Assembly: GCA_030390025.1 (NCBI GenBank) | Contig: JASTWF010000033.1 | Span: 870,001-934,000, forward strand | Direction of reading: 5' to 3' | Length of the DNA: 64,000 nt | Origin: Squalus acanthias | Lineage: Eukaryota | Shown here: piece by piece, positions 1 through 53,734 of the stretch | How positions within the stretch are numbered: position 1 is the stretch's first letter | How the letters are laid out: every line of letters starts with the position of its first letter | Notes under the pieces: generated by a model | The model's database searches: none | Seen by the model: only the letters and a program-made list of their open reading frames with translations | What the model was told of the DNA's origin: nothing | Translations under genes and position numbers: made by a program

Positions 1-3000
1 AGTGAGATTTACAGAGTGAGGGAATGGGAGTGAGATTTACAGAGTGAGGGAATGGGAGTGAGATTTACAGAGTGAGGGAATGGGAGTGAGATTTACAGAG
101 TGAGGGAATGGGAGTGAGATTTACAGAGTGAGGGAATGGGAGTGAGATTTACAGAGTGAGGGAATGGGAGTGAGATTTACAGAGTGAGGGAATGGGAGTG
201 AGATTTACAGAGTGAGGGAATGGGAGTGAGATTTACAGAGTGAGGGAATGGGAGTGAGATTTACAGAGTGAGGGAATGGGAGTGAGATTTACAGAGTGAG
301 GGAATGGGAGTGAGATTTACAGAGTGAGGGAATGGGAGTGAGATTTACAGAGTGAGGGAATGGGAGTGAGATTTACAGAGTGAGGGAATGGGAGTGAGAT
401 TTACAGAGTGAGGGAATGGGAGTGAGATTTACAGAGTGAGGGAATGGGAGTGAGATTTACAGAGTGAGGGAATGGGAGTGAGATTTACAGAGTGAGGGAA
501 TGGGAGTGAGATTTACAGAGTGAGGGAATGGGAGTGAGATTTACAGAGTGAGGGAATGGGAGTGAGATTTACAGAGTGAGGGAATGGGAGTGAGATTTAC
601 AGAGTGAGGGAATGGGAGTGAGATTTACAGAGTGAGGGAATGGGAGTGAGATTTACAGAGTGAGGGAATGGGAGTGAGATTTACAGAGTGAGGGAATGGG
701 AGTGAGATTTACAGAGTGAGGGAATGGGAGTGAGATTTACAGAGTGAGGGAATGGGAGTGAGATTTACAGAGTGAGGGAATGGGAGTGAGATTTACAGAG
801 TGAGGGAATGGGAGTGAGATTTACAGAGTGAGGGAATGGGAGTGAGATTTACAGAGTGAGGGAATGGGAGTGAGATTTACAGAGTGAGGGAATGGGAGTG
901 AGATTTACAGAGTGAGGGAATGGGAGTGAGATTTACAGAGTGAGGGAATGGGAGTGAGATTTACAGAGTGAGGGAATGGGAGTGAGATTTACAGAGTGAG
1001 GGAATGGGAGTGAGATTTACAGAGTGAGGGAATGGGAGTGAGATTTACAGAGTGAGGGAATGGGAGTGAGATTTACAGAGTGAGGGAATGGGAGTGAGAT
1101 TTACAGAGTGAGGGAATGGGAGTGAGATTTACAGAGTGAGGGAATGGGAGTGAGATTTACAGAGTGAGGGAATGGGAGTGAGATTTACAGAGTGAGGGAA
1201 TGGGAGTGAGATTTACAGAGTGAGGGAATGGGAGTGAGATTTACAGAGTGAGGGAATGGGAGTGAGATTTACAGAGTGAGGGAATGGGAGTGAGATTTAC
1301 AGAGTGAGGGAATGGGAGTGAGATTTACAGAGTGAGGGAATGGGAGTGAGATTTACAGAGTGAGGGAATGGGAGTGAGATTTACAGAGTGAGGGAATGGG
1401 AGTGAGATTTACAGAGTGAGGGAATGGGAGTGAGATTTACAGAGTGAGGGAATGGGAGTGAGATTTACAGAGTGAGGGAATGGGAGTGAGATTTACAGAG
1501 TGAGGGAATGGGAGTGAGATTTACAGAGTGAGGGAATGGGAGTGAGATTTACAGAGTGAGGGAATGGGAGTGAGATTTACAGAGTGAGGGAATGGGAGTG
1601 AGATTTACAGAGTGAGGGAATGGGAGTGAGATTTACAGAGTGAGGGAATGGGAGTGAGATTTACAGAGTGAGGGAATGGGAGTGAGATTTACAGAGTGAG
1701 GGAATGGGAGTGAGATTTACAGAGTGAGGGAATGGGAGTGAGATTTACAGAGTGAGGGAATGGGAGTGAGATTTACAGAGTGAGGGAATGGGAGTGAGAT
1801 TTACAGAGTGAGGGAATGGGAGTGAGATTTACAGAGTGAGGGAATGGGAGTGAGATTTACAGAGTGAGGGAATGGGAGTGAGATTTACAGAGTGAGGGAA
1901 TGGGAGTGAGATTTACAGAGTGAGGGAATGGGAGTGAGATTTACAGAGTGAGGGAATGGGAGTGAGATTTACAGAGTGAGGGAATGGGAGTGAGATTTAC
2001 AGAGTGAGGGAATGGGAGTGAGATTTACAGAGTGAGGGAATGGGAGTGAGATTTACAGAGTGAGGGAATGGGAGTGAGATTTACAGAGTGAGGGAATGGG
2101 AGTGAGATTTACAGAGTGAGGGAATGGGAGTGAGATTTACAGAGTGAGGGAATGGGAGTGAGATTTACAGAGTGAGGGAATGGGAGTGAGATTTACAGAG
2201 TGAGGGAATGGGAGTGAGATTTACAGAGTGAGGGAATGGGAGTGAGATTTACAGAGTGAGGGAATGGGAGTGAGATTTACAGAGTGAGGGAATGGGAGTG
2301 AGATTTACAGAGTGAGGGAATGGGAGTGAGATTTACAGAGTGAGGGAATGGGAGTGAGATTTACAGAGTGAGGGAATGGGAGTGAGATTTACAGAGTGAG
2401 GGAATGGGAGTGAGATTTACAGAGTGAGGGAATGGGAGTGAGATTTACAGAGTGAGGGAATGGGAGTGAGATTTACAGAGTGAGGGAATGGGAGTGAGAT
2501 TTACAGAGTGAGGGAATGGGAGTGAGATTTACAGAGTGAGGGAATGGGAGTGAGATTTACAGAGTGAGGGAATGGGAGTGAGATTTACAGAGTGAGGGAA
2601 TGGGAGTGAGATTTACAGAGTGAGGGAATGGGAGTGAGATTTACAGAGTGAGGGAATGGGAGTGAGATTTACAGAGTGAGGGAATGGGAGTGAGATTTAC
2701 AGAGTGAGGGAATGGGAGTGAGATTTACAGAGTGAGGGAATGGGAGTGAGATTTACAGAGTGAGGGAATGGGAGTGAGATTTACAGAGTGAGGGAATGGG
2801 AGTGAGATTTACAGAGTGAGGGAATGGGAGTGAGATTTACAGAGTGAGGGAATGGGAGTGAGATTTACAGAGTGAGGGAATGGGAGTGAGATTTACAGAG
2901 TGAGGGAATGGGAGTGAGATTTACAGAGTGAGGGAATGGGAGTGAGATTTACAGAGTGAGGGAATGGGAGTGAGATTTACAGAGTGAGGGAATGGGAGTG

Positions 3001-6000
3001 AGATTTACAGAGTGAGGGAATGGGAGTGAGATTTACAGAGTGAGGGAATGGGAGTGAGATTTACAGAGTGAGGGAATGGGAGTGAGATTTACAGAGTGAG
3101 GGAATGGGAGTGAGATTTACAGAGTGAGGGAATGGGAGTGAGATTTACAGAGTGAGGGAATGGGAGTGAGATTTACAGAGTGAGGGAATGGGAGTGAGAT
3201 TTACAGAGTGAGGGAATGGGAGTGAGATTTACAGAGTGAGGGAATGGGAGTGAGATTTACAGAGTGAGGGAATGGGAGTGAGATTTACAGAGTGAGGGAA
3301 TGGGAGTGAGATTTACAGAGTGAGGGAATGGGAGTGAGATTTACAGAGTGAGGGAATGGGAGTGAGATTTACAGAGTGAGGGAATGGGAGTGAGATTTAC
3401 AGAGTGAGGGAATGGGAGTGAGATTTACAGAGTGAGGGAATGGGAGTGAGATTTACAGAGTGAGGGAATGGGAGTGAGATTTACAGAGTGAGGGAATGGG
3501 AGTGAGATTTACAGAGTGAGGGAATGGGAGTGAGATTTACAGAGTGAGGGAATGGGAGTGAGATTTACAGAGTGAGGGAATGGGAGTGAGATTTACAGAG
3601 TGAGGGAATGGGAGTGAGATTTACAGAGTGAGGGAATGGGAGTGAGATTTACAGAGTGAGGGAATGGGAGTGAGATTTACAGAGTGAGGGAATGGGAGTG
3701 AGATTTACAGAGTGAGGGAATGGGAGTGAGATTTACAGAGTGAGGGAATGGGAGTGAGATTTACAGAGTGAGGGAATGGGAGTGAGATTTACAGAGTGAG
3801 GGAATGGGAGTGAGATTTACAGAGTGAGGGAATGGGAGTGAGATTTACAGAGTGAGGGAATGGGAGTGAGATTTACAGAGTGAGGGAATGGGAGTGAGAT
3901 TTACAGAGTGAGGGAATGGGAGTGAGATTTACAGAGTGAGGGAATGGGAGTGAGATTTACAGAGTGAGGGAATGGGAGTGAGATTTACAGAGTGAGGGAA
4001 TGGGAGTGAGATTTACAGAGTGAGGGAATGGGAGTGAGATTTACAGAGTGAGGGAATGGGAGTGAGATTTACAGAGTGAGGGAATGGGAGTGAGATTTAC
4101 AGAGTGAGGGAATGGGAGTGAGATTTACAGAGTGAGGGAATGGGAGTGAGATTTACAGAGTGAGGGAATGGGAGTGAGATTTACAGAGTGAGGGAATGGG
4201 AGTGAGATTTACAGAGTGAGGGAATGGGAGTGAGATTTACAGAGTGAGGGAATGGGAGTGAGATTTACAGAGTGAGGGAATGGGAGTGAGATTTACAGAG
4301 TGAGGGAATGGGAGTGAGATTTACAGAGTGAGGGAATGGGAGTGAGATTTACAGAGTGAGGGAATGGGAGTGAGATTTACAGAGTGAGGGAATGGGAGTG
4401 AGATTTACAGAGTGAGGGAATGGGAGTGAGATTTACAGAGTGAGGGAATGGGAGTGAGATTTACAGAGTGAGGGAATGGGAGTGAGATTTACAGAGTGAG
4501 GGAATGGGAGTGAGATTTACAGAGTGAGGGAATGGGAGTGAGATTTACAGAGTGAGGGAATGGGAGTGAGATTTACAGAGTGAGGGAATGGGAGTGAGAT
4601 TTACAGAGTGAGGGAATGGGAGTGAGATTTACAGAGTGAGGGAATGGGAGTGAGATTTACAGAGTGAGGGAATGGGAGTGAGATTTACAGAGTGAGGGAA
4701 TGGGAGTGAGATTTACAGAGTGAGGGAATGGGAGTGAGATTTACAGAGTGAGGGAATGGGAGTGAGATTTACAGAGTGAGGGAATGGGAGTGAGATTTAC
4801 AGAGTGAGGGAATGGGAGTGAGATTTACAGAGTGAGGGAATGGGAGTGAGATTTACAGAGTGAGGGAATGGGAGTGAGATTTACAGAGTGAGGGAATGGG
4901 AGTGAGATTTACAGAGTGAGGGAATGGGAGTGAGATTTACAGAGTGAGGGAATGGGAGTGAGATTTACAGAGTGAGGGAATGGGAGTGAGATTTACAGAG
5001 TGAGGGAATGGGAGTGAGATTTACAGAGTGAGGGAATGGGAGTGAGATTTACAGAGTGAGGGAATGGGAGTGAGATTTACAGAGTGAGGGAATGGGAGTG
5101 AGATTTACAGAGTGAGGGAATGGGAGTGAGATTTACAGAGTGAGGGAATGGGAGTGAGATTTACAGAGTGAGGGAATGGGAGTGAGATTTACAGAGTGAG
5201 GGAATGGGAGTGAGATTTACAGAGTGAGGGAATGGGAGTGAGATTTACAGAGTGAGGGAATGGGAGTGAGATTTACAGAGTGAGGGAATGGGAGTGAGAT
5301 TTACAGAGTGAGGGAATGGGAGTGAGATTTACAGAGTGAGGGAATGGGAGTGAGATTTACAGAGTGAGGGAATGGGAGTGAGATTTACAGAGTGAGGGAA
5401 TGGGAGTGAGATTTACAGAGTGAGGGAATGGGAGTGAGATTTACAGAGTGAGGGAATGGGAGTGAGATTTACAGAGTGAGGGAATGGGAGTGAGATTTAC
5501 AGAGTGAGGGAATGGGAGTGAGATTTACAGAGTGAGGGAATGGGAGTGAGATTTACAGAGTGAGGGAATGGGAGTGAGATTTACAGAGTGAGGGAATGGG
5601 AGTGAGATTTACAGAGTGAGGGAATGGGAGTGAGATTTACAGAGTGAGGGAATGGGAGTGAGATTTACAGAGTGAGGGAATGGGAGTGAGATTTACAGAG
5701 TGAGGGAATGGGAGTGAGATTTACAGAGTGAGGGAATGGGAGTGAGATTTACAGAGTGAGGGAATGGGAGTGAGATTTACAGAGTGAGGGAATGGGAGTG
5801 AGATTTACAGAGTGAGGGAATGGGAGTGAGATTTACAGAGTGAGGGAATGGGAGTGAGATTTACAGAGTGAGGGAATGGGAGTGAGATTTACAGAGTGAG
5901 GGAATGGGAGTGAGATTTACAGAGTGAGGGAATGGGAGTGAGATTTACAGAGTGAGGGAATGGGAGTGAGATTTACAGAGTGAGGGAATGGGAGTGAGAT

Positions 6001-9000
6001 TTACAGAGTGAGGGAATGGGAGTGAGATTTACAGAGTGAGGGAATGGGAGTGAGATTTACAGAGTGAGGGAATGGGAGTGAGATTTACAGAGTGAGGGAA
6101 TGGGAGTGAGATTTACAGAGTGAGGGAATGGGAGTGAGATTTACAGAGTGAGGGAATGGGAGTGAGATTTACAGAGTGAGGGAATGGGAGTGAGATTTAC
6201 AGAGTGAGGGAATGGGAGTGAGATTTACAGAGTGAGGGAATGGGAGTGAGATTTACAGAGTGAGGGAATGGGAGTGAGATTTACAGAGTGAGGGAATGGG
6301 AGTGAGATTTACAGAGTGAGGGAATGGGAGTGAGATTTACAGAGTGAGGGAATGGGAGTGAGATTTACAGAGTGAGGGAATGGGAGTGAGATTTACAGAG
6401 TGAGGGAATGGGAGTGAGATTTACAGAGTGAGGGAATGGGAGTGAGATTTACAGAGTGAGGGAATGGGAGTGAGATTTACAGAGTGAGGGAATGGGAGTG
6501 AGATTTACAGAGTGAGGGAATGGGAGTGAGATTTACAGAGTGAGGGAATGGGAGTGAGATTTACAGAGTGAGGGAATGGGAGTGAGATTTACAGAGTGAG
6601 GGAATGGGAGTGAGATTTACAGAGTGAGGGAATGGGAGTGAGATTTACAGAGTGAGGGAATGGGAGTGAGATTTACAGAGTGAGGGAATGGGAGTGAGAT
6701 TTACAGAGTGAGGGAATGGGAGTGAGATTTACAGAGTGAGGGAATGGGAGTGAGATTTACAGAGTGAGGGAATGGGAGTGAGATTTACAGAGTGAGGGAA
6801 TGGGAGTGAGATTTACAGAGTGAGGGAATGGGAGTGAGATTTACAGAGTGAGGGAATGGGAGTGAGATTTACAGAGTGAGGGAATGGGAGTGAGATTTAC
6901 AGAGTGAGGGAATGGGAGTGAGATTTACAGAGTGAGGGAATGGGAGTGAGATTTACAGAGTGAGGGAATGGGAGTGAGATTTACAGAGTGAGGGAATGGG
7001 AGTGAGATTTACAGAGTGAGGGAATGGGAGTGAGATTTACAGAGTGAGGGAATGGGAGTGAGATTTACAGAGTGAGGGAATGGGAGTGAGATTTACAGAG
7101 TGAGGGAATGGGAGTGAGATTTACAGAGTGAGGGAATGGGAGTGAGATTTACAGAGTGAGGGAATGGGAGTGAGATTTACAGAGTGAGGGAATGGGAGTG
7201 AGATTTACAGAGTGAGGGAATGGGAGTGAGATTTACAGAGTGAGGGAATGGGAGTGAGATTTACAGAGTGAGGGAATGGGAGTGAGATTTACAGAGTGAG
7301 GGAATGGGAGTGAGATTTACAGAGTGAGGGAATGGGAGTGAGATTTACAGAGTGAGGGAATGGGAGTGAGATTTACAGAGTGAGGGAATGGGAGTGAGAT
7401 TTACAGAGTGAGGGAATGGGAGTGAGATTTACAGAGTGAGGGAATGGGAGTGAGATTTACAGAGTGAGGGAATGGGAGTGAGATTTACAGAGTGAGGGAA
7501 TGGGAGTGAGATTTACAGAGTGAGGGAATGGGAGTGAGATTTACAGAGTGAGGGAATGGGAGTGAGATTTACAGAGTGAGGGAATGGGAGTGAGATTTAC
7601 AGAGTGAGGGAATGGGAGTGAGATTTACAGAGTGAGGGAATGGGAGTGAGATTTACAGAGTGAGGGAATGGGAGTGAGATTTACAGAGTGAGGGAATGGG
7701 AGTGAGATTTACAGAGTGAGGGAATGGGAGTGAGATTTACAGAGTGAGGGAATGGGAGTGAGATTTACAGAGTGAGGGAATGGGAGTGAGATTTACAGAG
7801 TGAGGGAATGGGAGTGAGATTTACAGAGTGAGGGAATGGGAGTGAGATTTACAGAGTGAGGGAATGGGAGTGAGATTTACAGAGTGAGGGAATGGGAGTG
7901 AGATTTACAGAGTGAGGGAATGGGAGTGAGATTTACAGAGTGAGGGAATGGGAGTGAGATTTACAGAGTGAGGGAATGGGAGTGAGATTTACAGAGTGAG
8001 GGAATGGGAGTGAGATTTACAGAGTGAGGGAATGGGAGTGAGATTTACAGAGTGAGGGAATGGGAGTGAGATTTACAGAGTGAGGGAATGGGAGTGAGAT
8101 TTACAGAGTGAGGGAATGGGAGTGAGATTTACAGAGTGAGGGAATGGGAGTGAGATTTACAGAGTGAGGGAATGGGAGTGAGATTTACAGAGTGAGGGAA
8201 TGGGAGTGAGATTTACAGAGTGAGGGAATGGGAGTGAGATTTACAGAGTGAGGGAATGGGAGTGAGATTTACAGAGTGAGGGAATGGGAGTGAGATTTAC
8301 AGAGTGAGGGAATGGGAGTGAGATTTACAGAGTGAGGGAATGGGAGTGAGATTTACAGAGTGAGGGAATGGGAGTGAGATTTACAGAGTGAGGGAATGGG
8401 AGTGAGATTTACAGAGTGAGGGAATGGGAGTGAGATTTACAGAGTGAGGGAATGGGAGTGAGATTTACAGAGTGAGGGAATGGGAGTGAGATTTACAGAG
8501 TGAGGGAATGGGAGTGAGATTTACAGAGTGAGGGAATGGGAGTGAGATTTACAGAGTGAGGGAATGGGAGTGAGATTTACAGAGTGAGGGAATGGGAGTG
8601 AGATTTACAGAGTGAGGGAATGGGAGTGAGATTTACAGAGTGAGGGAATGGGAGTGAGATTTACAGAGTGAGGGAATGGGAGTGAGATTTACAGAGTGAG
8701 GGAATGGGAGTGAGATTTACAGAGTGAGGGAATGGGAGTGAGATTTACAGAGTGAGGGAATGGGAGTGAGATTTACAGAGTGAGGGAATGGGAGTGAGAT
8801 TTACAGAGTGAGGGAATGGGAGTGAGATTTACAGAGTGAGGGAATGGGAGTGAGATTTACAGAGTGAGGGAATGGGAGTGAGATTTACAGAGTGAGGGAA
8901 TGGGAGTGAGATTTACAGAGTGAGGGAATGGGAGTGAGATTTACAGAGTGAGGGAATGGGAGTGAGATTTACAGAGTGAGGGAATGGGAGTGAGATTTAC

Positions 9001-12000
9001 AGAGTGAGGGAATGGGAGTGAGATTTACAGAGTGAGGGAATGGGAGTGAGATTTACAGAGTGAGGGAATGGGAGTGAGATTTACAGAGTGAGGGAATGGG
9101 AGTGAGATTTACAGAGTGAGGGAATGGGAGTGAGATTTACAGAGTGAGGGAATGGGAGTGAGATTTACAGAGTGAGGGAATGGGAGTGAGATTTACAGAG
9201 TGAGGGAATGGGAGTGAGATTTACAGAGTGAGGGAATGGGAGTGAGATTTACAGAGTGAGGGAATGGGAGTGAGATTTACAGAGTGAGGGAATGGGAGTG
9301 AGATTTACAGAGTGAGGGAATGGGAGTGAGATTTACAGAGTGAGGGAATGGGAGTGAGATTTACAGAGTGAGGGAATGGGAGTGAGATTTACAGAGTGAG
9401 GGAATGGGAGTGAGATTTACAGAGTGAGGGAATGGGAGTGAGATTTACAGAGTGAGGGAATGGGAGTGAGATTTACAGAGTGAGGGAATGGGAGTGAGAT
9501 TTACAGAGTGAGGGAATGGGAGTGAGATTTACAGAGTGAGGGAATGGGAGTGAGATTTACAGAGTGAGGGAATGGGAGTGAGATTTACAGAGTGAGGGAA
9601 TGGGAGTGAGATTTACAGAGTGAGGGAATGGGAGTGAGATTTACAGAGTGAGGGAATGGGAGTGAGATTTACAGAGTGAGGGAATGGGAGTGAGATTTAC
9701 AGAGTGAGGGAATGGGAGTGAGATTTACAGAGTGAGGGAATGGGAGTGAGATTTACAGAGTGAGGGAATGGGAGTGAGATTTACAGAGTGAGGGAATGGG
9801 AGTGAGATTTACAGAGTGAGGGAATGGGAGTGAGATTTACAGAGTGAGGGAATGGGAGTGAGATTTACAGAGTGAGGGAATGGGAGTGAGATTTACAGAG
9901 TGAGGGAATGGGAGTGAGATTTACAGAGTGAGGGAATGGGAGTGAGATTTACAGAGTGAGGGAATGGGAGTGAGATTTACAGAGTGAGGGAATGGGAGTG
10001 AGATTTACAGAGTGAGGGAATGGGAGTGAGATTTACAGAGTGAGGGAATGGGAGTGAGATTTACAGAGTGAGGGAATGGGAGTGAGATTTACAGAGTGAG
10101 GGAATGGGAGTGAGATTTACAGAGTGAGGGAATGGGAGTGAGATTTACAGAGTGAGGGAATGGGAGTGAGATTTACAGAGTGAGGGAATGGGAGTGAGAT
10201 TTACAGAGTGAGGGAATGGGAGTGAGATTTACAGAGTGAGGGAATGGGAGTGAGATTTACAGAGTGAGGGAATGGGAGTGAGATTTACAGAGTGAGGGAA
10301 TGGGAGTGAGATTTACAGAGTGAGGGAATGGGAGTGAGATTTACAGAGTGAGGGAATGGGAGTGAGATTTACAGAGTGAGGGATGGGAGTGAGATTTACA
10401 GAGTGAGGGAATGGGAGTGAGATTTACAGAGTGAGGGAATGGGAGTGAGATTTACAGAGTGAGGGAATGGGAGTGAGATTTACAGAGTGAGGGAATGGGA
10501 GTGAGATTTACAGAGTGAGGGAATGGGAGTGAGATTTACAGAGTGAGGGAATGGGAGTGAGATTTACAGAGTGAGGGAATGGGAGTGAGATTTACAGAGT
10601 GAGGGAATGGGAGTGAGATTTACAGAGTGAGGGAATGGGAGTGAGATTTACAGAGTGAGGGAATGGGAGTGAGATTTACAGAGTGAGGGAATGGGAGTGA
10701 GATTTACAGAGTGAGGGAATGGGAGTGAGATTTACAGAGTGAGGGAATGGGAGTGAGATTTACAGAGTGAGGGAATGGGAGTGAGATTTACAGAGTGAGG
10801 GAATGGGAGTGAGATTTACAGAGTGAGGGAATGGGAGTGAGATTTACAGAGTGAGGGAATGGGAGTGAGATTTACAGAGTGAGGGAATGGGAGTGAGATT
10901 TACAGAGTGAGGGAATGGGAGTGAGATTTACAGAGTGAGGGAATGGGAGTGAGATTTACAGAGTGAGGGAATGGGAGTGAGATTTACAGAGTGAGGGAAT
11001 GGGAGTGAGATTTACAGAGTGAGGGAATGGGAGTGAGATTTACAGAGTGAGGGAATGGGAGTGAGATTTACAGAGTGAGGGAATGGGAGTGAGATTTACA
11101 GAGTGAGGGAATGGGAGTGAGATTTACAGAGTGAGGGAATGGGAGTGAGATTTACAGAGTGAGGGAATGGGAGTGAGATTTACAGAGTGAGGGAATGGGA
11201 GTGAGATTTACAGAGTGAGGGAATGGGAGTGAGATTTACAGAGTGAGGGAATGGGAGTGAGATTTACAGAGTGAGGGAATGGGAGTGAGATTTACAGAGT
11301 GAGGGAATGGGAGTGAGATTTACAGAGTGAGGGAATGGGAGTGAGATTTACAGAGTGAGGGAATGGGAGTGAGATTTACAGAGTGAGGGAATGGGAGTGA
11401 GATTTACAGAGTGAGGGAATGGGAGTGAGATTTACAGAGTGAGGGAATGGGAGTGAGATTTACAGAGTGAGGGAATGGGAGTGAGATTTACAGAGTGAGG
11501 GAATGGGAGTGAGATTTACAGAGTGAGGGAATGGGAGTGAGATTTACAGAGTGAGGGAATGGGAGTGAGATTTACAGAGTGAGGGAATGGGAGTGAGATT
11601 TACAGAGTGAGGGAATGGGAGTGAGATTTACAGAGTGAGGGAATGGGAGTGAGATTTACAGAGTGAGGGAATGGGAGTGAGATTTACAGAGTGAGGGAAT
11701 GGGAGTGAGATTTACAGAGTGAGGGAATGGGAGTGAGATTTACAGAGTGAGGGAATGGGAGTGAGATTTACAGAGTGAGGGAATGGGAGTGAGATTTACA
11801 GAGTGAGGGAATGGGAGTGAGATTTACAGAGTGAGGGAATGGGAGTGAGATTTACAGAGTGAGGGAATGGGAGTGAGATTTACAGAGTGAGGGAATGGGA
11901 GTGAGATTTACAGAGTGAGGGAATGGGAGTGAGATTTACAGAGTGAGGGAATGGGAGTGAGATTTACAGAGTGAGGGAATGGGAGTGAGATTTACAGAGT

Positions 12001-39000: not shown

Positions 39001-42000
39001 GAGTGAGATTTACAGAGTGAGGGAATGGGAGTGAGATTTACAGAGTGAGGGAATGGGAGTGAGATTTACAGAGTGAGGGAATGGGAGTGAGATTACAGAG
39101 TGAGGGAATGGGAGTGAGATTTACAGAGTGAGGGAATGGGAGTGAGATTTACAGAGTGAGGGAATGGGAGTGAGATTTACAGAGTGAGGGAATGGGAGTG
39201 AGATTTACAGAGTGAGGGAATGGGAGTGAGATTTACAGAGTGAGGGAATGGGAGTGAGAATTACAGAGTGAGGGAATGGGAGTGAGATTTACAGAGTGAG
39301 GGAATGGGAGTGAGATTTACAGAGTGAGGGAATGGGAGTGAGAATTACAGAGTGAGGGAATGGGAGTGAGATTTACAGAGTGAGGGAATGGGAGTGAGAT
39401 TTACAGAGTGAGGGAATGGGAGTGAGATTTACAGAGTGAGGGAATGGAAGTGAGATTTACAGAGTGAGGGAATGGGAGTGAGAATTACAGAGTGAGGGAG
39501 TGGGAGTGAGATTTACAGAGTGAGGGAATGGGAGTGAGAATTACTGAGTGAGGGAGTGGGAGTGAGAATTACAGAGTGAGGGAGTGGGAGTGAGATTAAC
39601 AGAGTGAGGGAGTGGGTGTGAGAATTAGAGATTGAGGGAATGGGAGTGAGATTTACAGAGTGAGGGAATGGAAGTGAGATTTACAGAGTGAGGGAATGGG
39701 AGTGAGATTTACAGAGTGAGGGGATGTGAGTGAGATTTACAGATTGAAGGAATGTGAGTGAGATTTACCGAGTGCGGGAGAGGGAGTGAGGTTTGCAGAG
39801 TGATGGAATGGGAGTGAGATTAACAGAGTGAGGGAGTGGGTATGAGAATTAGAGATTGAGGGAATGGGAGTGAGATTTACAGAGTGAGGGAATGGAAGTG
39901 AGATTTACAGAGTGAGGGAATGGGAGTGAGATTTACAGAGTGAGGGAATTTGAGTGAGATTTACAGATTGAAGGAATGTGAGTGAGATTTACAGAGTAAT
40001 GGAGTGGGAGTGAGATTTACCGAGTGAGGGAGTGGGAGTGAGATTTACAGTGTAAGGGAATGGGAGTGAGTTTTACAGAGTGAGGGAATGGGAGTGGGAT
40101 TTACAGAGTAAGGGAATGGGAGTGAGATTTACAGAGTAAGGGAATGGGAGTGAGTTTTACAGAGTGAGGGAATGGGAGTGAGATTTACAGAGTAAGGGAA
40201 TGGGAGTGAGATTTACAGAGTAAGGGAGTGGAAGAGAGATTTACAGAATGAGGGAATGGGTGTTAGATTTACAGAGTGAGGGAATGGGAGAGAGATTTAC
40301 AAAGTGAGGGAATGGGAGTGAGGTTTACAGATTGAGGGCATGGAAGTGAGAATTAGAGATTGAGTGAAAGGGAGTGAGGTTTACATATTGATGGAATGTG
40401 AGTGAGATTTACAGATTGAGGGAATGGGAGTGAGATTTACAGAGTGAGGGAATGGAAGTGAGATTTACAGAGTGAGGGAGTGGGAGTGAGATTTACAGAG
40501 TGAGGGAATGGGAGTGAGATTTACAGAGTGAGGGAATGGGAGTGAGATTTACAGAGTGAGGGATTGGGAGTGAGATTTACAGATTGAGGGAATGTGAGTG
40601 AGATTTACAGAGTGAGGGAATGGGAGTGAGATTTACAGAGTGAGGGAATGGGAGTGAGATTTACAGAGTGAGGGAATGGGAGTGAGATTTACAGATTGAG
40701 GGAATGGGAGTGAGATTTACAGAGTGAGGGAATGGGAGTGAGATTTACAGAGTGAGGGAGTGGGAGTGAGATTTACAGAGTAAGGGAATGGGAGTGAGAT
40801 TTACAGAGTGAGGGAATGGGAGTGAGTTTACAGATTGAGGGAATGGGAGTGAGATTTACAGAGTGAGGGAATGGGAGTGAGATTTACAGAGTGAGGGAAT
40901 GGGAGTGAGATTTACAGAGTGAGGGAGTGGGAGTGAGGTTTACAGAGTGAGGGAATGGGAGTGAGATTTACAGAGTGAGGGAATGGGAGTGAGATTTACA
41001 GAGTGAGGGAGTGGGAGTGAGATTTACAGAGTGAGGGAATGGGAGTGAGATTTACAGAGTGAGGGAATGGGAGTGAGATTTACAGAGTGAGGGAATGGGA
41101 GTGAGATTTACAGATTGAGGGAATGGGAGTGAGATTTACAGAGTGAGGGAATGGGAGTGAGATTTACAGAGTGAGGGAATGGGAGTGAGATTTACAGAGT
41201 GAGGGAATGGGAGTGAGATTTACAGAGTGAGGGAATGGGAGTGAGATTTACAGAGTGAGGGAATGGGAGTGAGATTTACAGAGTGAGGGAATGGGAGTGA
41301 GATTTACAGAGTGAGGGAATGGGAGTGAGATTTACAGAGTGAGGGAATGGGAGTGAGATTTACAGAGTGAGGGAATGGGAGTGAGATTTACAGAGTGAGG
41401 GAATGGGAGTGAGATTTACAGAGTGAGGGAATGGGAGTGAGATTTACAGAGTGAGGGAATGGGAGTGAGATTTACAGAGTGAGGGAATGGGAGTGAGATT
41501 TACAGAGTGAGGGAATGGGAGTGAGATTTACAGAGTGAGGGAATGGGAGTGAGATTTACAGAGTGAGGGAATGGGAGTGAGATTTACAGAGTGAGGGAAT
41601 GGGAGTGAGATTTACAGAGTGAGGGAATGGAGTGAGATTTACAGAGTGAGGGAATGGGAGTGAGATTTACAGAGTGAGGGAATGGGAGTGAGATTTACAG
41701 AGTGAGGGAATGGGAGTGAGATTTACAGAGTGAGGGAATGGGAGTGAGATTTACAGAGTGAGGGAATGGGAGTGAGATTTACAGAGTGAGGGAATGGGAG
41801 TGAGATTTACAGAGTGAGGGAATGGGAGTGAGATTTACAGAGTGAGGGAATGGGAGTGAGATTTACAGAGTGAGGGAATGGGAGTGAGATTTACAGAGTG
41901 AGGGAATGGGAGTGAGATTTACAGAGTGAGGGAATGGGAGTGAGATTTACAGAGTGAGGGAATGGGAGTGAGATTTACAGAGTGAGGGAATGGGAGTGAG

Positions 42001-45000
42001 ATTTACAGAGTGAGGGAATGGGAGTGAGATTTACAGAGTGAGGGAATGGGAGTGAGATTTACAGAGTGAGGGAATGGGAGTGAGATTTACAGAGTGAGGG
42101 AATGGGAGTGAGATTTACAGAGTGAGGGAATGGAGTGAGATTTACAGAGTGAGGGGATGGGAGTGAGATTTACAGAGTGAGGGAATGGGAGTGAGATTTA
42201 CAGAGTGAGGGAAGGGAGTGAGGTTTACAGAGTGAGGGAATGGGAGTGAGATTTACAGAGTGAGGGAGTGGGAGTGAGAATTAGAGATTGAGGGAATGGG
42301 AGTGAGATTTACAGAGTGAGGGAATGGGAGTGAGATTTACAGAGTGAGGGAATGGGAGTGAGATTTACAGAGTGAGGGAATGGGAGTGAGATTTACAGAG
42401 TGAAGGAATGGTGAGTGAGATTTACAGAGTAAGGGAATGGGAGTGAGATTTACAGAGTGAGGGAGTGGGAGTGAGATTTACAGAGTGAGGGAATGGGAGT
42501 GAGATTTACAGAGTGAGGGAATGGGAGTGAGATTTACAGAGTGAGGGAATGGGAGTGAGATTTACAGAGTGAGGGAATGGGAGTGAGATTTACAGAGTGA
42601 GGGAATGGGAGTGAGGTTTACAGAGTGAGGGAATGGGAGTGAGATTTACAGAGTGAGGGAAGTGGAGTGAGATTTACAGAGTGAGGGAATGGGAGTGAGA
42701 TTTACAGAGTGAGGGAATGGGAGTGAGATTTACTGAGTGAGGGAATGGGAGTGAGATTTACAGATTGAGGGCATGGAGTGAGAATTAGAGATTGAGTGAA
42801 AGGGAGTGAGGTTTACATATTGATGGAATGTGAGTGAGATTTACAGATTGAGGGAATGGGAGTGAGAATTAGAGATTGAGAGAATGGGAGTCAGTGTTGC
42901 AGAGTGAGGGAAATGGAGTGAGATTTACATATTGATGGAATGTGAGTGAGATTTACAGTTTGAGGGAATGGGAGTGAGTTTTACAGAGTAAGGGCATGGG
43001 AGTGAGAATTACGGATTGAGGGTATGGGAGTGAGAATTACAGAGTGATGGAATGGGAGTGAGATTTACAGAGTGAGGGAATGGGAGTGAGATTTACAGAG
43101 TGAGGGAATGGGAGTGAGATTTACAGATTGAGGGAATGGGAGTGAGATTTACAGAGTGAGGGAATGGGAGTGAGATTTACAGAGTGAGGGAATGGGAGTG
43201 AGATTTACAGAGTGAGGGAATGGGAGTGAGATTTACAGAGTGAGGGAATGGGAGTGAGATTTACAGAGTGAGGGAATGGGAGTGAGATTTACAGAGTGAG
43301 GGAATGGGAGTGAGATTTACAGAGTGAGGGAATGGGAGTGAGATTTACAGAGTGAGGGAATGGGAGTGAGATTTACAGAGTGAGGGAATGGGAGTGAGAT
43401 TTACAGAGTGAGGGAATGGGAGTGAGATTTACAGAGTGAGGGAATGGGAGTGAGATTTACAGAGTGAGGGAATGGGAGTGAGATTTACAGAGTGAGGGAA
43501 TGGGAGTGAGATTTACAGAGTGAGGGAATGGGAGTGAGATTTACAGAGTGAGGGAATGGGAGTGAGAATTACAGAGTGAGGGAATGGGAGTGAGATTTAC
43601 AGAGTGAGGGAATGGGAGTGAGAATTACAGAGTGAGGGAATGGGAGTGAGATTTACAGAGTGAGGGAATGGGAGTGAGAATTACAGAGTGAGGGAATGGG
43701 AGTGAGATTTACAGAGTGAGGGAATGGGAGTGAGATTTACAGAGTGAGGGAATGGGAGTGAGATTTACAGAGTGAGGGAATGGGAGTGAGATTTACAGAG
43801 TGAGGGAATGGGAGTGAGATTTACAGAGTGAGGGAATGGGAGTGAGATTTACAGAGTGAGGGAATGGGAGTGAGATTTACAGAGTGAGGGAATGGGAGTG
43901 AGATTTACAGAGTGAGGGATGGGAGTGAGATTACAGAGTGAGGGAATGGAGTGAGATTTACAGAGTGAGGGAATGGGAGTGAGATTACAGAGTGAGGGAA
44001 TGGGAGTGAGATTTACAGAGTGAGGGAATGGAGTGAGATTTACAGAGTGAGGGAATGGGAGTGAGATTTAGAGATTGAGGGAATGGGAGTGAGATTTACA
44101 GAGTGAGGGAATGGAGTGAGATTTACAGAGTGAGGGAATGGGAGTGAGATTTACAGAGTGAGGGAATGGGAGTGAGATTTACAGAGTGAGGGAATGGGAG
44201 TGAGATTTACAGAGTGAGGGAGTGGGAGTGAGATTTACAGAGTGAGGGAGTGGAGTGAGATTTACAGAGTAAGGGAATGGGAGTGAGATTTACAGAGTGA
44301 GGGAATGGGAGTGAGATTTACAGAGTGAGGGAATGGGAGTGAGATTTACAGAGTGAGGGAATGGGAGTGAGATTTACAGAGTGAGGGAATGGGAGTGAGA
44401 TTTACAGAGTAAGGGAATGGGAGTGAGATTTACAGAGTGAGGGAGTGGAAGAGAGATTTACAGAGTGAGGGAATGGGTGTGAGATTTACAGAGTGACGGA
44501 ATGGGAGAGAGATTTACAGAGTGAGGGAATGGGAGTGAGATTTACAGATTGAGGGAATGGAAGTGAGAATTAGAGATTGAGGGAAAGGGAGTGAGATTAC
44601 AGATTGAGGGAATGGGAATGAGGTTTACAGAGTGAGGGAATGGGAGTGAGATTTTCAGAGTGAGGGAATTGGTGTGAGAATTACAGAGTGAGGGAGTGGG
44701 AGTGAGATTTACAGAGTGAGGGAATGGGAGTGAGAATTACTGAGTGAGGGAATGGGAGTGAGATTTACAGATTGAGGGAATGGGAATGAGTTTTACAGAG
44801 TAAGGGCATGGGAGTGAGAATTACGGATTGAGGGTATGGGAGTGAGAATTACAGAGTGATGGAATGGGAGTGAGATTTACAGAGTGAGGGAATGGGAGTG
44901 AGATTTACAGAGTGAGGGAATGTGAGTGAGATTTACAGATTGAAGGAATGGGAGTGAAGTTTACAGATTGAGGGAATGGGAGTGAGATTTACCGAGTGAG

Positions 45001-48000
45001 GGAATGGGAGTGAGATTTACAGAGTGAGGGAATGGAAGTGAGATTTACAGAGTGAGGGAGTGGGAGTGAGGTTTACAGAGTGAGGGAATGGGAGTGAGAT
45101 TTACCGAGTGAGGGAATGGGAGTGAGATTTACAGAGTGAGGGAATGGAAGTGAGATTTACAGAGTGAGGGAGTGGGAGTGAGGTTTACAGAGTGAGGGAA
45201 TGGGAGTGAGATTTTCAGAGTGAGGGAATTGGTGTGAGAATTACAGAGTGAGGGAGTGGGAGTGAGATTTACAGAGTGAGGGAATGGGAGTGAGAATTAC
45301 TGAGTGAGGGAATGGGAGTGAGATTTACAGATTGAGGGCATGGAAGTGAGAATTAGAGATTGAGTGAAAGGGAGTGAGGTTTACATATTGATGGAATGTG
45401 AGTGAGATTTACAGATTGAGGGAATGGGAGTGAGAATTAGAGATTGAGAGAATGGGAGTCAGTGTTGCAGAGTGAGAGAAAGGGAGTGAGATTTACATAT
45501 TGATGGAATGTGAGTGAGATTTACAGTTTGAGGGAATGGGAGTGAGTTTTACAGAGTAAGGGCATGGGAGTGAGAATTACGGATTGAGGGTATGGGAGTG
45601 AGAATTACAGAGTGATGGAATGGGAGTGAGATTTACAGAGTGAGGGAATGGGAGTGAGATTTACAGAGTGAGGGAATGTGAGTGAGATTTACAGATTGAA
45701 GGAATGTGAGTGAGATTTACAGAGTAATGGAGTGGGAGTGAGATTTACCGAGTGAGGGAGTGGGAGTGAGATTTACAGAGTAAGGGAATGTTTGTGAGAT
45801 TTACAGAGTGAGGGAATGGGAGTGAAGTTTACAGATTGAGGGAATGGGAGTGAGATTTACAGAGTGAGGGAATGGGAGTGAGATTTACAGAGTGAGGGAA
45901 TGGGAGTGAGATTTACAGAGTGAGGGAATGGGAGTGAGATTTACAGAGTGAGGGAATGGGAGTGAGATTTACAGAGTGAGGGAATGGAAGTGAGATTTAC
46001 AGAGTGAGGGAGTGGGAGTGAGGTTTACAGAGTGAGGGAATGGGAGTGAGATTTACAGAGTGAGGGAATGGGAGTGAGAATTACAGAGTGAGGGAGTGGG
46101 AGTGAGATTTACAGAGTGAGGGAATGGGAGTGAGATTTACAGAGTGAGGGAATGGAGTGAGATTTACAGAGTGAGGGAATGGGAGTGAGATTTACAGAGT
46201 GAGGGAATGGGAGTGAGATTTACAGAGTGAGGGAATGGGAGTGAGATTTACAGAGTGAGGGAGTGGGAGTGAGATTTACAGAGTGAGGGAATGGGAGTGA
46301 GATTACAGAGTGAGGGAATGGGAGTGAGAATTACAGAGTGAGGGAGTGGGAGTGAGATTACAGAGTGAGGGAGTGGGAGTGAGAATTACAGAGTGAGGGA
46401 ATGGGAGTGAGATTTACAGAGTGAGGGAATGGAAGTGAGATTTACAGAGTGAGGGAGTGGGAGTGAGATTTACAGAGTGAGGGAATGGGAGTGAGATTTA
46501 CAGAGTGAGGGAATGGGAGTGAGATTTACAGAGTGAGGGAGTGGGAGTGAGATTTACAGAGTGAGGGAATGGGAGTGAGATTTACAGAGTGAGGGAATGG
46601 GAGTGAGATTTACAGAGTGAGGAATGGGAGTGAGATTTACAGAGTGAGGGAATGGGAGTGAGAATTACAGATTGAGGGAATGGGAGTGAGATTTACAGAG
46701 TGAGGGAATGGGAGTGAGATTTACAGAGTGAGGGAGTGGGAGTGAGATTTACAGAGTGAGGGAATGGGAGTGAGATTTACAGAGTGAGGGAATGGGAGTG
46801 AGATTTACAGAGTGAGGGAATGGGAGTGAGATTTACAGAGTGAGGGAATGGGAGTGAGATTTACAGAGTGAGGGAATGGGAGTGAGATTTACAGAGTGAG
46901 GGAATGGAGTGAGATTTACAGAGTGAGGGAATGGGAGTGAGATTTACAGAGTGAGGGAATGGGAGTGAGATTTACAGAGTGAGGGAATGGGAGTGAGATT
47001 TACAGAGTGAGGGAATGGGAGTGAGATTTACAGAGTGAGGGAATGGGAGTGAGATTTACAGAGTGAGGGAATGGGAGTGAGATTTACAGAGTGAGGGAAT
47101 GGGAGTGAGATTTACAGAGTGAGGGAATGGGAGTGAGATTTACAGAGTGAGGGAATGGGAGTGAGATTTACAGAGTGAGGGAATGGGAGTGAGATTTACA
47201 GAGTGAGGGAATGGGAGTGAGATTTACAGAGTGAGGGAATGGGAGTGAGATTTACAGAGTGAGGGAATGGGAGTGAGATTACAGAGTGAGGGAGTGGGAG
47301 TGAGATTTACAGAGTGAGGGATTGGGAGTGAGATTTACAGAGTGAGGGAATGGGAGTGAGATTTACAGAGTGAGGGAATGGGAGTGAGATTTACAGAGTG
47401 AGGGAATGGGAGTGAGAATTAGAGATTGAGGGAATGGGAGTGAGATTTACAGAGTGAGGGAATGGAGTGAGATTTACAGAGTGAGGGAATGGGAGTGAGA
47501 TTTACAGAGTGAGGGAATGGGAGTGAGATTTACAGATTGAGGGAATGGGAGTGAGATTTACAGAGTGAGGGAATGGGAGTGAGATTTACAGAGTGAGGGG
47601 AAGTGGGAGTGAGATTTACAGATTGAGGGAATGGGAGTGAGATTTACAGAGTGAGGGAATGGGAGTGAGATTTACAGAGTGAGGGAATGGGAGTGAGATT
47701 TACAGAGTGAGGAATGGGAGTGAGATTTACAGAGTGAGGGAATGGGAGTGAGATTTACAGAGTAAGGGAATGGGAGTGAGATTTACAGAGTGAGGGAATG
47801 GGAGTGAGATTTACAGAGTGAGGGAATGGGAGTGAGATTTACAGAGTGAGGGAATGGGAGTGAGATTACAGAGTGAGGGAATGGGAGTGAGATTTACAGA
47901 GTGAGGGAATGGGAGTGAGATTTACAGAGTGAGGGAATGGGAGTGAGATTTACAGAGTGAGGGAATGGAGTGAGATTTACAGAGTGAGGGAATGGGAGTG

Positions 48001-51000
48001 AGATTTACAGAGTGAGGGAATGGGAGTGAGATTTACAGAGTGAGGAATGGGAGTGAGATTTACAGAGTGAGGGAGTGGGTTTGAGATTAGCATATTGATG
48101 GAATGTGAGTGGAGATTTGACAGATGAGGGAATGGGAGTGAGATTTACCGAGTGAGGGAATGGAGTGAGATTTACAGAGTGAGGGAATGGAAGTGAGATT
48201 TACAGAGTGAGGGAGTGGGAGTGAGGTTTACAGAGTGAGGGAATGGAGTGAGATTTCAGAGTGAGGGAATTGGTGTGAGAATTACAGAGTGAGGGAGTGG
48301 GAGTGAGATTTACAGAGTGAGGGAATGGGAGTGAGAATTACTGAGTGAGGGAATGGGAGTGAGATTTACAGATTGAGGGAATGGGAGTGAAGTTTACAGA
48401 CTGAGGGAATGGGTGTGAGAATTAGAGATTGAGGGAATGGGAGTGAGATTTACAGAGTGAGGGAATGGAAGTGAGATTTACAGAGTGAGGGAGTGGGAGT
48501 GAGGTTTACAGAGTGAGGGAATGGGAGTGAGATTTACAGAGTGAGGGAATGGGTGTGAGATTTACAGAGTGAGGGAGTGGGAGTGAGATTTACAGAGTGA
48601 GGGAATGGGAGTGAGAATTACTGAGTGAGGGAGTGGGAGTGAGAATTACAGAGTGAGGGAGTGGGAGTGAGATTAACAGAGTGAAGGAGTGGGTATGAGA
48701 ATTAGAGATTGAGGGAATGGGAGTGAGATTTACAGAGTGAGGGAATGGAAGTGAGATTTACAGAGTGAGGGAGTTGGAGTGAGGTTTACAGAGTGAGGGA
48801 ATGGGAGTGAGATTTACAGAGTGAGGGAATGGGTGTGAGAATTACAGAGTGAGGGAGTGGGAGTGAGATTTACAGAGTGAGGGAATGGGAGTGAGAATTA
48901 CTGAGTGAGGGAATGGGAGTGAGATTTACAGATTGAGGGAATGGGAGTGAAGTTTACAGATTGAGGGAATGGGTGTGAGAATTAGAGATTGAGGGAATGG
49001 GAGTGAGATTTACAGAGTGAGGGAATGGAAGTGAGATTTACAGAGTGAGGGAGTGGGAGTGAGGTTTACAGAGTGAGGGAATGGGAGTGAGATTTACAGT
49101 GTGAGGGAATGGGAGTGAGAATTACAGAGTGAGGGAGTGGGAGTGAGATTTACAGAGTGAGGGAATGGGAGTGAGAATTACTGAGTGAGGGAGTGGGAGT
49201 GAAAATTACAGAGTGAGGGAGTGGGAGTGAGATTAACAGAGTGAGGGAGTGGGTATGAGAATTAGAGATTGAGTGAATGGGAGTGAGATTTACAGAGTGA
49301 GGGAATGGAAGTCAGATTTACAGAGTGAGGGAATGGGAGTGAGATTTACAGAGTGAGGGAATGTGAGTGAGATTTACAGATTGAAGGAATGTGTGTGAGA
49401 TTTACCGAGTGCGGGAGAGGGAGTGAGGTTTGCAGAGTGATGGAATGGGAGTGAGATTAACAGAGTGAGGGAGTGGGTGTGAGAATTAGAGATTGAGGGA
49501 ATGGGAGTGAGATTTACAGAGTGAGGGAATGGAAGTGAGATTTACAGAGTGAGGGAATGGGAGTGAGAATTAGATATTGAGGGAATGTGAGTGAGATTTA
49601 CAGAGTGAGGGAGTGGGAGTGAGAATTAGAGATTGAGGGAATGGGAGTGAGATTAACAGAGTGAGGGAATGGGAGTGAGAATTAGATATTGAGGGAATGT
49701 GAGTGAGATTTACAGAGTGAGGGAGTGGGAGTGAGAATTAGAGATTGAGGGAATGGGAGTGAGATTTACAGAGTAAGGGAATGGGAGTGAGATTTACAGA
49801 GTGAGGGAATGGGAGTGAGATTTACAGAGTGAGGGAATGGAAGTGAGATTTAAAGTGTGAGGGAATGGAAGTGAGATTTACAGAGTGAGGGAATGGGAGT
49901 GGGATTTACAGAGTGAGGGAGAGGGAGTGAGGTTCGCAGAGTGATGGAATGGGAGTGAGATTAACAGAGTGAGGGAGTGGGTGTAAGATTTACCGAGTGC
50001 GGGAGAGGGAGTGAGGTTTGCAGAGTGATGGAATGGGAGTGAGATTAACAGAGTGAGGGAGTGGGTGTGAGAATTAGAGATTGAGGAATGGGAGTGAGAT
50101 TTACAGAGTGAGGGAATGGAAGTGAGATTTACAGAGTGAGGGAATGGGAGTGAGATTTACAGAGTGAGGGAATGTGAGTGAGATTTACAGATTGAAGGAA
50201 TGTGAGTGAGATTTACAGAGTAATGGAGTGGGAGTGAGATTTACCGAGTGAGGGAGTGGAAGTGAGATTTACAGAGTAAGGGAATGGGAGTGAGTTTTAC
50301 AGAGTGAGGGAATGGGAGTGAGATTTACAGAGTAAGGGAATGGGAGTGAGATTTACAGAGTAAGGGAATGGGAGTGAGTTTTACAGAGTGAGGGAATGGG
50401 AGTGAGATTTACAGAGTAAGGGAATGGGAGTGAGATTTACAGAGTAAGGGAGTGGAAGAGAGATTTACAGAATGAGGGAATGGGTGTTAGATTTACAGAG
50501 TGACGGAATGGGAGAGAGATTTACAAAGTGAGGGAATGGGAGTGAGGTTTACAGATTGAGGGCATGGAAGTGAGAATTAGAGATTGAGGGAAAGGGAGTG
50601 AGGTTTACATATTGATGGAATGTGAGTGAGATTTACAGATTGAGGGAATGGGAGTGAGAATTAGAGATTGAGAGAATGGGAGTCAGTGTTGCAGAGTGAG
50701 GGAAAGGGAGTGAGATTTACATATTGATGGAATGTGAGTGAGATTTACAGATTGAGGGAATGGGAGTGAGTTTTACAGAGTAAGGGCATGGGAGTGAGAA
50801 TTACGGATTGAGGGTATGGGAGTGAGAATTACAGAGTGATGAAATGGGAGTGAGATTAACAGAGTGAGGGAGTGGGTGTGAGAATTAGATATTGAGGGAA
50901 TGGGCGTGAGATTTACAGAGTGAGGGAATGGAAGTGAGATTTACAGAGTGAGGGAATGGGAGTGAGATTTACAGAGTGAGGGAATGTGAGTGAGATTTAC

Positions 51001-51450
51001 AGATTGAAGGAATGTGAGTGAGATTTACAGAGTAATGGAGTGGGAGTGAGATTTACCGAGTGAGGGAGTGGGAGTGAGATTTACAGAGTCAGGGAATGGG
51101 TGTGAGATTTACAGAGTGAGGGAATGGGAGTGAATTTTACTGATTGATGAATGGGAGTGAGATTTACAGAGTAAGGGAATGGGAGTGAGATTTACAGAGT
51201 GAGGGAATGGGAGTGAGATTTACAGATTGAGGAATAGGAGTTGGATTTACAGCGTGAGGGAATGGGAGTGAGGGTAACAGAGTGAGGGAATGGGAGTGAT
51301 ATTTGCTGAGTGATAGAACGGGAGTGAGATTTTGAGAGTGAGAGAATGCGATTGCGAGTGAGACTCACCGAGTCAGAGACTATGTCTGGCATCGATAGAG
51401 TGACCGAATGGGAGTAGGAATGAGATTTACAGAGTGGGAGAAGGGAATTA
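1..51450. repeat. 28-bp tandem satellite/minisatellite array (AGTGAGATTTACAGAGTGAGGGAATGGG)n, about 1,800 copies, open at the left window edge
   Basis: Directly visible. The line pattern recurs every 420 bp (15 units). The unit is two 14-bp halves that both begin AGTGAG. Composition per unit is 12 G, 9 A, 6 T, 1 C, with no CpG. The array degenerates over ~51,230-51,450. Confidence 0.99.
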
Positions 51451-51854
51451 CATTTGAAGATGAGGGGGCTTGAAGGGTAATCTTTGTGCAAGAAGGGATA
51501 GAGAGGCAAACTAGATAACGATGGATCAGTCCATCCATGTTCTCATTGACCGAATTTCAATGCTTTAGTTAAAAATTATAATTTCATGCGACGCTGTACA
51601 CTGGGTGATATCAAATTAGACACGCATTATCCACTATGCTGGATTCTCCTTTCTGAGGAAGTCATTGGTGGGGAGATTCGGGCGGCGTGAATAATGAACG
51701 GCCAGTTCTCCATCGCCGGTGTTATGTCATTACCCAAACTTAAAGTGAAACCTGTTTGATTTTTCTGACAATCAACATCTCATGTATATTCAGCAGGCAT
51801 TTGCTTTCTCTCTTTAATTTAGCTACATGCTCCATCCCAGTATCATTTTCTGTG

Positions 51855-52005
51855 GCACTTTAGCTTCTGGCGATAATATGAAATGTGCAATATCGAATTG
51901 GCCTTCCATTGTTTTCAATGGGAAGGAAAATCGGGCGTGGTATAAAATAGGGGACATATTGGATATGTCCCATTTTACACCGTCGCCCAAAGTTAATATC
52001 CCCCC
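51855..52005. mobile_element. Short palindromic MITE-like element with internal hairpins
   Basis: Hairpin 51902-51926 (CCTTCCATTG...CAATGGGAAGG). Hairpin 51933-51988 (GGGCGTGGTATAAAATAGGGGACATAT / ATATGTCCCATTTTACACCGTCGCCC). Degenerate outer inverted arms. Related motifs at 56214-56318. Confidence 0.5.
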
Positions 52006-52085
52006 TCTGTGTCACTTTCACGCACACACAACCCACAACTTTGCTGTTTGGACTGAGATACTGAGTGACCCTCTGCTGTTGACAG

Positions 52086-52197
52086 GCCTGGAGGGCATTG
52101 CCAGCCGGCTGGGACTCGGCCTCTTGGCTCCAAGAAAAAAGATCACGGTGATGTTGATGGGGAACAATTCGGCCGGCAAGAGCTCGTTCATCAACTG
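52086..52197 (+). CDS. Internal coding exon A of EHD-like dynamin-superfamily P-loop NTPase (G1/Walker A): (G)LEGIASRLGLGLLAPRKKITVMLMGNNSAGKSSFIN(W)
   Basis: Acceptor CTCTGCTGTTGACAG|GC, donor TG|GTGAGA. 112 nt, phase 1 to 2. GxxxxGKS follows a hydrophobic beta-strand. The split TG|G Trp codon joins in frame to the exon at 57201. Confidence 0.9.
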
Positions 52198-52336
52198 GTG
52201 AGAACGTCATTTGTACTTTTACTCTCGCGATCTTGGTGACGCTGGCAAGGACGCATTTATTCCCAACTCCAGTTGTCTTGAAGGTATTAAGAGCCAACCA
52301 AGTGGTGTGGCATTGGAGTTACTTGTTAATGCTGCG

Positions 52337-53040: not shown

Positions 53041-53044
53041 GTTA

Positions 53045-53485: not shown

Positions 53486-53496
53486 GTGACTAAAAG

Positions 53497-53725
53497 AAAC
53501 ATAGGATTAAATACAGGAGTTGGTAACGCAGCCCCTGTAACCTGTTCTGTCATTCAATTGTATCATGGCTGATAACTTAATTCCCTTGACACATTTACCA
53601 AAAACAATCTCAATATTGAAGTTTCACTTTTCTCAACATTTACAATTTTTGAGAGACAGATATCTAGATTGTTCTGGATTTCCATACAACAGCATATGGA
53701 TTTCCTGTATCTACCCTGTCAAATC
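53497..53725 (-). mobile_element. Older CR1-type LINE 3' end, apparently continuing at ~55008-55045 beyond a younger insertion
   Basis: AAACATAGGATTAAATACAGGAGTTGG...CCTGTTCTGTCATTCAATTGTATCATGGCTGAT parallels the young element's 3' end at 53770-53840. Confidence 0.6.
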
Positions 53726-53734
53726 TGCATCTGA

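Follow-up and report, generated by a model that had tools for sequence, protein, structure and literature searches.

The left part of a 64,000-nucleotide stretch of the Squalus acanthias genome (assembly GCA_030390025.1, contig JASTWF010000033.1, positions 870,001 to 934,000 of the forward strand; hereafter the window) is filled by a tandem array of a 28-bp unit, and the right part carries five exons (A to E) of a gene related to the EHD proteins. The array, the exons, and their geometry are real; the length of the array is an assembly figure. We favor, with modest confidence, an explanation in which a minisatellite in intron 1 was duplicated along with the gene and then grew in one paralog, which may be decaying.

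The five exons, when spliced, yield 187 codons without a stop, and all nine visible splice ends are AG or GT. An exon E search returned 824 relatives among 828 candidates; the matches bear automatic database names (si:dkey-98f17.5-like, si:ch211-11k18.4-like, or uncharacterized), and the top identities (92–94%, among the best 120 of the 824 relatives) are to sharks. The spliced protein is 83–89% identical over 187 columns to cartilaginous-fish members, with which it groups at a support of 100/99 in a tree of 19 rows, and it contains the P-loop, DTPG, and SKAD motifs. Two scanned members of the family matched Pfam Dynamin_N and MMR_HSR1 but not the EH domain, so the family appears to be EHD-related rather than to consist of EHD proteins; among solved structures, EHD2 and EHD4 come closest (E = 3e-9). 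By homology, then, the gene encodes a predicted EHD-related P-loop protein of the si:dkey-98f17.5/si:ch211-11k18.4-like family. A literature search, which most subscription papers lay outside, found nothing on this gene family in sharks, its function, or this array; one paper (PMC3530609) mentions the gene names.

Exon A aligns to residues 39–76 of the shark homologs, in which the P-loop lies at residue 64 or 65 in 52 of the 66 motif-bearing matches (120 listed). A profile of the preceding residues 1–38, built from 61 canonical homologs and searched in six frames over the whole window, found exon 1 nowhere: the best score was 2.6 bits, against at least 56.7 bits for the 61 profile members, and control profiles recovered exons A, B, and C at 78.7, 71.0, and 43.9 bits, respectively. 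The same search rules out an overlooked exon 1, whether within the array or within the gap of about 640 bp between array and exon A, on either strand. By this comparison, some 115 bases of coding sequence, with a phase 1 end, lie outside the window or are lost; the initial annotation had placed the upstream exon or exons beyond the left edge of the window. Because exon 1 is absent from the window and present in 61/61 canonical homologs, the array takes the position of intron 1 by homology, and it likely lies within the first intron of this gene copy. Database model P0025 diverges from the other homologs exactly at the exon A boundary, which hints that the position of the intron between exon 1 and exon A is shared. 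First introns are the longer ones across vertebrates (PMC9438311). The introns from exon A onward measure 5003, 481, 2759, and 2313 bp, and the array is indeed at least ten times as long as any of them.

The array runs from position 1 to 51,348 (1836.9 copies, 96% matches by Tandem Repeats Finder [TRF]) and is open at the left edge of the window. Its unit is purine-rich, arranged head to tail, and made of two related 14-mers that agree at 7 of 14 positions; the GC skew is about 0.85 along the whole array, and the window holds no N bases. The longest perfect runs comprise 370 and 290 units. Sequence zones within the array differ sharply in how far they can be trusted (Table 1). At the left, the first 18,799 bases form a run free of markers after homopolymer compression. 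Between 18.5 and 27.4 kb there are 16 events per kb (1.6%), 47% of them indels (77 substitutions, 16 insertions, and 53 deletions, 37 of the 53 in homopolymers); 47% of the variant 40-mers there are singletons, and for 0/104 multi-variant 36-mers of the 18–26-kb zone was a partner found elsewhere in the array. This subzone looks like low-quality consensus with error-like variation. A jumbled patch within it (24982–25014), with about 16 bases deleted, may mark one poor read. From 27.4 to 37.5 kb only 24 events occur, or 2.4 per kb. Among the substitutions of the whole 18.5–37.5-kb part, 45 of 85 are of types that rank among the 12 most frequent in the anchored part to the right (spectrum rho 0.38), so part of the variation in the middle may be real.

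The variant-rich part from 37.5 to 51.35 kb has a different character, with 589 substitutions and 48 indels. Blocks of 75–670 bp that share variants recur at other array positions, and those copied blocks that lack internal gaps are 98–100% identical, where 73–88% would be expected. A base-level scan of the array found no regular higher-order period, only these dispersed copied blocks. The right 14 kb or so would thus represent an old edge of the array that is well anchored and owes its form to unequal exchange or conversion. Only this part is well anchored, because the first 18.8 kb are free of markers and the 18.5–27.4-kb subzone is error-like; the length of the array to the left of it should not be trusted from the assembly alone. 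The initial annotation gave the array more than 51 kb; that figure stands as assembled (TRF, no N), but not as the true length, given the marker-free first 18,799 bases.

Toward the gene, the array decays into the flank gradually, as an edge formed in place would. As first annotated, the array stops about 640 bp short of the gene, its decayed end falling near 51450 and exon A starting at 52086; exon A does begin in phase 1 after a clear acceptor, with a pyrimidine-rich AG followed by two bases and the first full codon at 52088. A 43-bp imperfect palindrome (51939–51981) lies about 100 bp 5′ of that acceptor and is possibly the remnant of a small inverted-repeat element. A sigma-70 promoter scan gave hits at shuffle level only, the model being bacterial and not applicable to a eukaryote. 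A KKG-like stretch near 51490 raised the suspicion that the unit arose in place from a neighboring CR1 ORF2 fragment, but this origin found no support: a CR1 profile of 43 segments around the start of the reverse transcriptase (RT) scored at best 0.2 bits at the junction (95th percentile of shuffles, 0.4 bits), other regions of long interspersed elements (LINEs) and L2, covered only by tblastn with four CR1 proteins, gave a best E value of 0.018, and the resemblance, over six residues, between the minus-strand unit and the start of the CR1 RT scored no higher than shuffles. A search of JGI metagenome contigs, a source uninformative for a shark repeat, gave 0 exact matches to the 28-mer; vertebrate satellites are described as mostly species-restricted (PMC13320880).

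Several lines of evidence indicate that the gene has paralogs. Twenty sequencing runs contain part of 51350–57860, the best of them (organism A) with 47% of 677 sampled words. The comparison with sequencing runs covered 4/22 listed runs, at 88% likeness, with 32 of about 103,800 pieces listed and contigs of short-read type. In run X1, three contigs (records 2, 3, and 4) of 229–286 bases lie over the exon A flank with 23, 27, and 0 differences from the window; three flank versions about 9% apart, where a diploid single-copy locus would give two and less divergent ones, mean that paralogs exist. Another contig of this run (record 1) covers 51381–51618, thus linking the decayed end of the array to the flank, and shows 27 differences over its 239 bases; position 51380 is covered by eight contigs in X1 and four in X5. 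Since the junction of array and flank is found in independent contigs, one of them diverged, it is genuine and predates at least one duplication. At the protein level, Heptranchias perlo has six RefSeq gene models, with 17 proteins in six accession groups, five of which are located on a single sequence of 53.5 Mb and the sixth on a sequence of 3.1 Mb; all 17 proteins have the full N-terminus, which suggests that duplication in the family can carry exon 1 along. One of the H. perlo models has a G-to-R change in the P-loop. Pristiophorus japonicus has at least two versions of the gene. In several sharks, this EHD-related and so far uncharacterized gene has been amplified (homologs P0007, P0008, P0122–P0136, and P0137–P0143), with at least three versions in organism A. 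Tandem gene duplication is reported to be frequent in sharks (10.1101/2025.06.08.657570). The two putative RNA runs that were compared (X20 and X22, of seven listed) gave no cover in the bins of exons A to C and no exon joint among 15/108 listed, and are no evidence on expression.

The copy in the window may be decaying, to judge from its codons and one splice site. It carries five changes at columns conserved in at least 90% of homologs (H27N in the P-loop, E40G, Q44E, F143Y, and Q187H, numbered from exon A); no more than four such changes are present in 66 of 68 homolog sequences. The donor of exon E (63202–63210) reads CAC/GTACAG, with C at −1 and A at +5, so that both the −1G and the +5G are missing; the other four donors have the +5G. 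Donors without a +5G have been found to keep the −1G almost invariantly (PMC8283771). Residue 187 is encoded by the last codon of exon E and is Q in 68/68 homologs, and the donor change is a candidate splice-disabling change in this copy. Read-through of exon E would meet a stop after 23 codons.

We propose that a 28-bp minisatellite was already beside exon 2, resident in intron 1, before the duplications of the gene family, and that array and gene then travelled together as a cassette. The array would have grown by unequal exchange or gene conversion among its units, through perfect tracts, as suggested by the copied variant blocks near the old edge and the long perfect tracts further out. 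Growth may have been tolerated because other copies would make this one redundant and so remove its cost. Nothing in the array sequence would compel transcription to terminate or splicing to go wrong. Its plus strand contains no AATAAA or ATTAAA, no acceptor-like sites, and no pyrimidine runs longer than five, but about 3,500 weak donor-like GTGAG words, which match four of the nine positions of the U1 consensus; lacking an acceptor-like site or a poly(A) signal, the array, if transcribed, would let the polymerase pass and be removed by ordinary exon definition, with no need to assume special machinery. At a polymerase speed of 2–4 kb per minute, the array would add 13–25 minutes. Ten units folded as RNA gave weak structure only (z = −1.88, centroid empty); the G-rich nascent RNA could form R-loops or quadruplexes.

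Several points weigh against this proposal. The initial annotation had the array inside an intron, which holds as a position by homology; exon 1 of this copy, however, is not seen on the far side, the sequence stopping inside the array at the left edge of the window. Organism A, which has only 47% of the sampled words, may be a relative rather than the species of the window, and copy number does not follow from contig depth. The copy shows decay to a modest degree: its protein has an end branch of 0.092, against 0.051–0.062 in three sharks and 0.16 in a ray, and isoforms of the same genes are among the 68 full-length proteins used for comparison. The open frame is also compatible with a recent 5′ truncation (probability of no disablement, 0.45 at 1% divergence). 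It is the multiple copies of the gene together with the hints of decay that open two other views of the locus, as a truncated duplicate or as a relaxed paralog.

A 5′-truncated duplicate, with its break inside or at the array, would have exons 2 onward without exon 1 and the promoter, leaving the array intergenic and the gene a young pseudogene. We consider this rather unlikely, though the locus is multi-copy, tandem arrays are common recombination breakpoints, and the five conserved-column changes, the exon E donor with its Q-to-H codon, and the early stop on read-through would all suit it. The array-flank junction is shared with a copy about 11% diverged and must therefore be old, whereas the window exons keep an open frame, an improbable outcome of prolonged neutral decay: a rough model with an assumed frameshift rate gives probabilities of escaping disablement of 0.45, 0.14, and 0.018 at 1, 2.5, and 5% divergence. 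All listed Heptranchias paralogs, moreover, retain exon 1. The gene might also be intact and expressed, with a first intron of more than 51 kb of nearly pure 28-mer and with paralogs that share the array edge and differ in array length; we regard this as unlikely. Unlikely, too, in our view is an assembly artefact in which the right end of the array (about 14 kb or more) is real and the length is inflated, or the marker-free part is mis-joined to an array of the same unit. A typical HiFi read is comparable to or shorter than the 18,799 marker-free bases at the left, the 18.5–27.4-kb subzone combines its indels, homopolymer deletions, and singleton 40-mers with a jumbled patch, and the occurrence of one and the same array edge at several paralogous loci would invite mis-joins. 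The right junction is nonetheless backed by independent contigs, more than half of the middle substitutions are of anchored-part types, and perfect tracts are known from real arrays, though far shorter there.

The possibility that transcription or translation begins between the array and exon A needs separate treatment, since the initial annotation saw no credible ATG-bearing exon in 51450–52085. None of the 15 candidates in the gap that run from an ATG to a phase 1 GT matches a homolog, in agreement with that statement, but a stretch that stays open for 90 codons in the frame of exon A (51818–52087), with ATGs at 51827, 51878, and 51965, had been overlooked. If exon A were part of a first exon with its ATG in this stretch, the array would lie upstream of the gene. 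The openness has P = 0.011 under a first-order Markov model (the corresponding stretches of the other four exons are 50, 7, 43, and 12 codons), or about 0.05 after correction because five exons were examined, and a 6-base deletion at 51829 in other copies keeps the frame. That deletion, however, overlaps the first ATG, in 166/166 depth units in X5 and 68/176 in X1; the diverged copy in record 2 of X1 has nine gap letters over the stretch; and the exon A acceptor is intact and of conserved phase. A search with the extension found no homologs: none of 29 candidate proteins covers it, and all 11 matches run through the exon A part. We judge a start in the gap to be highly improbable, and return to the intron 1 minisatellite copied with its gene as the favored explanation.

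The remaining features of the window lie in introns downstream of exon A. Two 5′-truncated fragments of CR1-type LINEs occupy 53740–55050 and 55250–56150 on the minus strand of the intron after exon A; the former is of very high copy in organism A and about 80% similar to cartilaginous-fish CR1 ORF2. The intron after exon C contains an (AG)n run (58198–58279) and a short purine-rich tandem repeat with a 30/60-bp period and 8.6 copies (58967–59224).

Table 1. Features of the array and the gene in the window
Feature	Position	Strand	Remarks
Array, homogeneous part	1–18540	none	one 1-base deletion in ~660 units
Array, middle part	18541–37500	none	two subzones split at 27.4 kb
Array, variant-rich part	37501–51348	none	46 events per kb, 92% substitutions
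Decayed edge of the array, merging into unique flank	51349–51450	none	also in diverged copies of the locus
Presumed intron 1, 3′ end with acceptor	51451–52085	+	90-codon open stretch and 43-bp imperfect palindrome
Exon A, second coding exon by homology (residues 39–76)	52086–52197	+	starts in phase 1; P-loop with H-to-N change
Exon B (residues 77–107)	57201–57294	+	by homology
Exon C (residues 108–126)	57776–57830	+	by homology
Exon D, DTPG motif	60590–60730	+	by homology
Exon E, SKAD motif	63044–63204	+	downstream exons beyond right edge

Among known systems, the closest in scale appears to be TRACT, the variable-number tandem repeat in intron 3 of human CACNA1C, which has a 30-bp unit and spans 3 to more than 30 kb, and for which growth through perfect tracts is a proposed model (PMC13131567). 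Both arrays have a unit of about 30 bp, extend head to tail over kilobases to tens of kilobases, and mix perfect tracts with recurrent one-base unit variants. TRACT differs in belonging to a single-copy expressed gene and in having its length measured across cohorts, whereas the shark gene is multi-copy and its intron position is by homology; the longest perfect tracts named for TRACT have 26 units, against the 370 and 290 found here, and its range stays below the more than 51 kb of the shark array as assembled. The initial annotation had instead likened the array to the Drosophila Y fertility genes. The Y-loop genes kl-3, kl-5, and ks-1/ORY have gigantic, satellite-filled introns of hundreds of kilobases to megabases (PMC6508621; PMC11207136), and there, as here, a tandem repeat would fill nearly one whole intron with one strand transcribed. 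Those introns are, however, made of 5-bp satellites, Y-linked, spermatocyte-specific, and dependent on Blanks and Heph (PMC6508621; PMC11207136), while the shark array has a 28-bp unit rather than a simple 5-bp satellite and would make an intron of at least 52 kb, as assembled, in a multi-copy gene. Genes of 10–80 kb are termed far smaller, and introns of 50–100 kb are described as not showing the splicing-defect response of gigantic genes (PMC11207136). With hundreds of kilobases to megabases on one side and a lower bound of 52 kb on the other, the Drosophila likeness was overstated; the shark array seems to resemble the human CACNA1C intronic repeat more than the megabase introns of Drosophila, and we take the former as the nearer match.

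A parallel for the proposed joint inheritance of array and gene is offered by the beta-satellite/KRAB zinc-finger cassettes of human 19p12, in which array and gene were copied by segmental duplication. In both cases an array and an adjacent gene segment would be inherited together through duplication; the shark array differs in occupying the place of intron 1 instead of lying 5′ of a promoter.

As it stands, the locus is one more case from repeat-laden shark genomes, in which long introns and tandem duplications are documented: long repeat-rich introns have been described (10.1101/443036), and introns and intergenic DNA are reported to carry similar repeat loads (10.1101/2025.06.08.657570). 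Confirmation would make it an intronic minisatellite that exceeds in size the best-studied human example, that of CACNA1C, and that belongs to a gene family in which several copies share the array edge. Copies with different array lengths could then be compared in one nucleus, and one could ask whether growth of the array lowers expression or follows loss of function. Such a family would be a natural series for the tolerance of intronic satellites by RNA polymerase II and the spliceosome, and for array growth as a trigger of silencing or decay.

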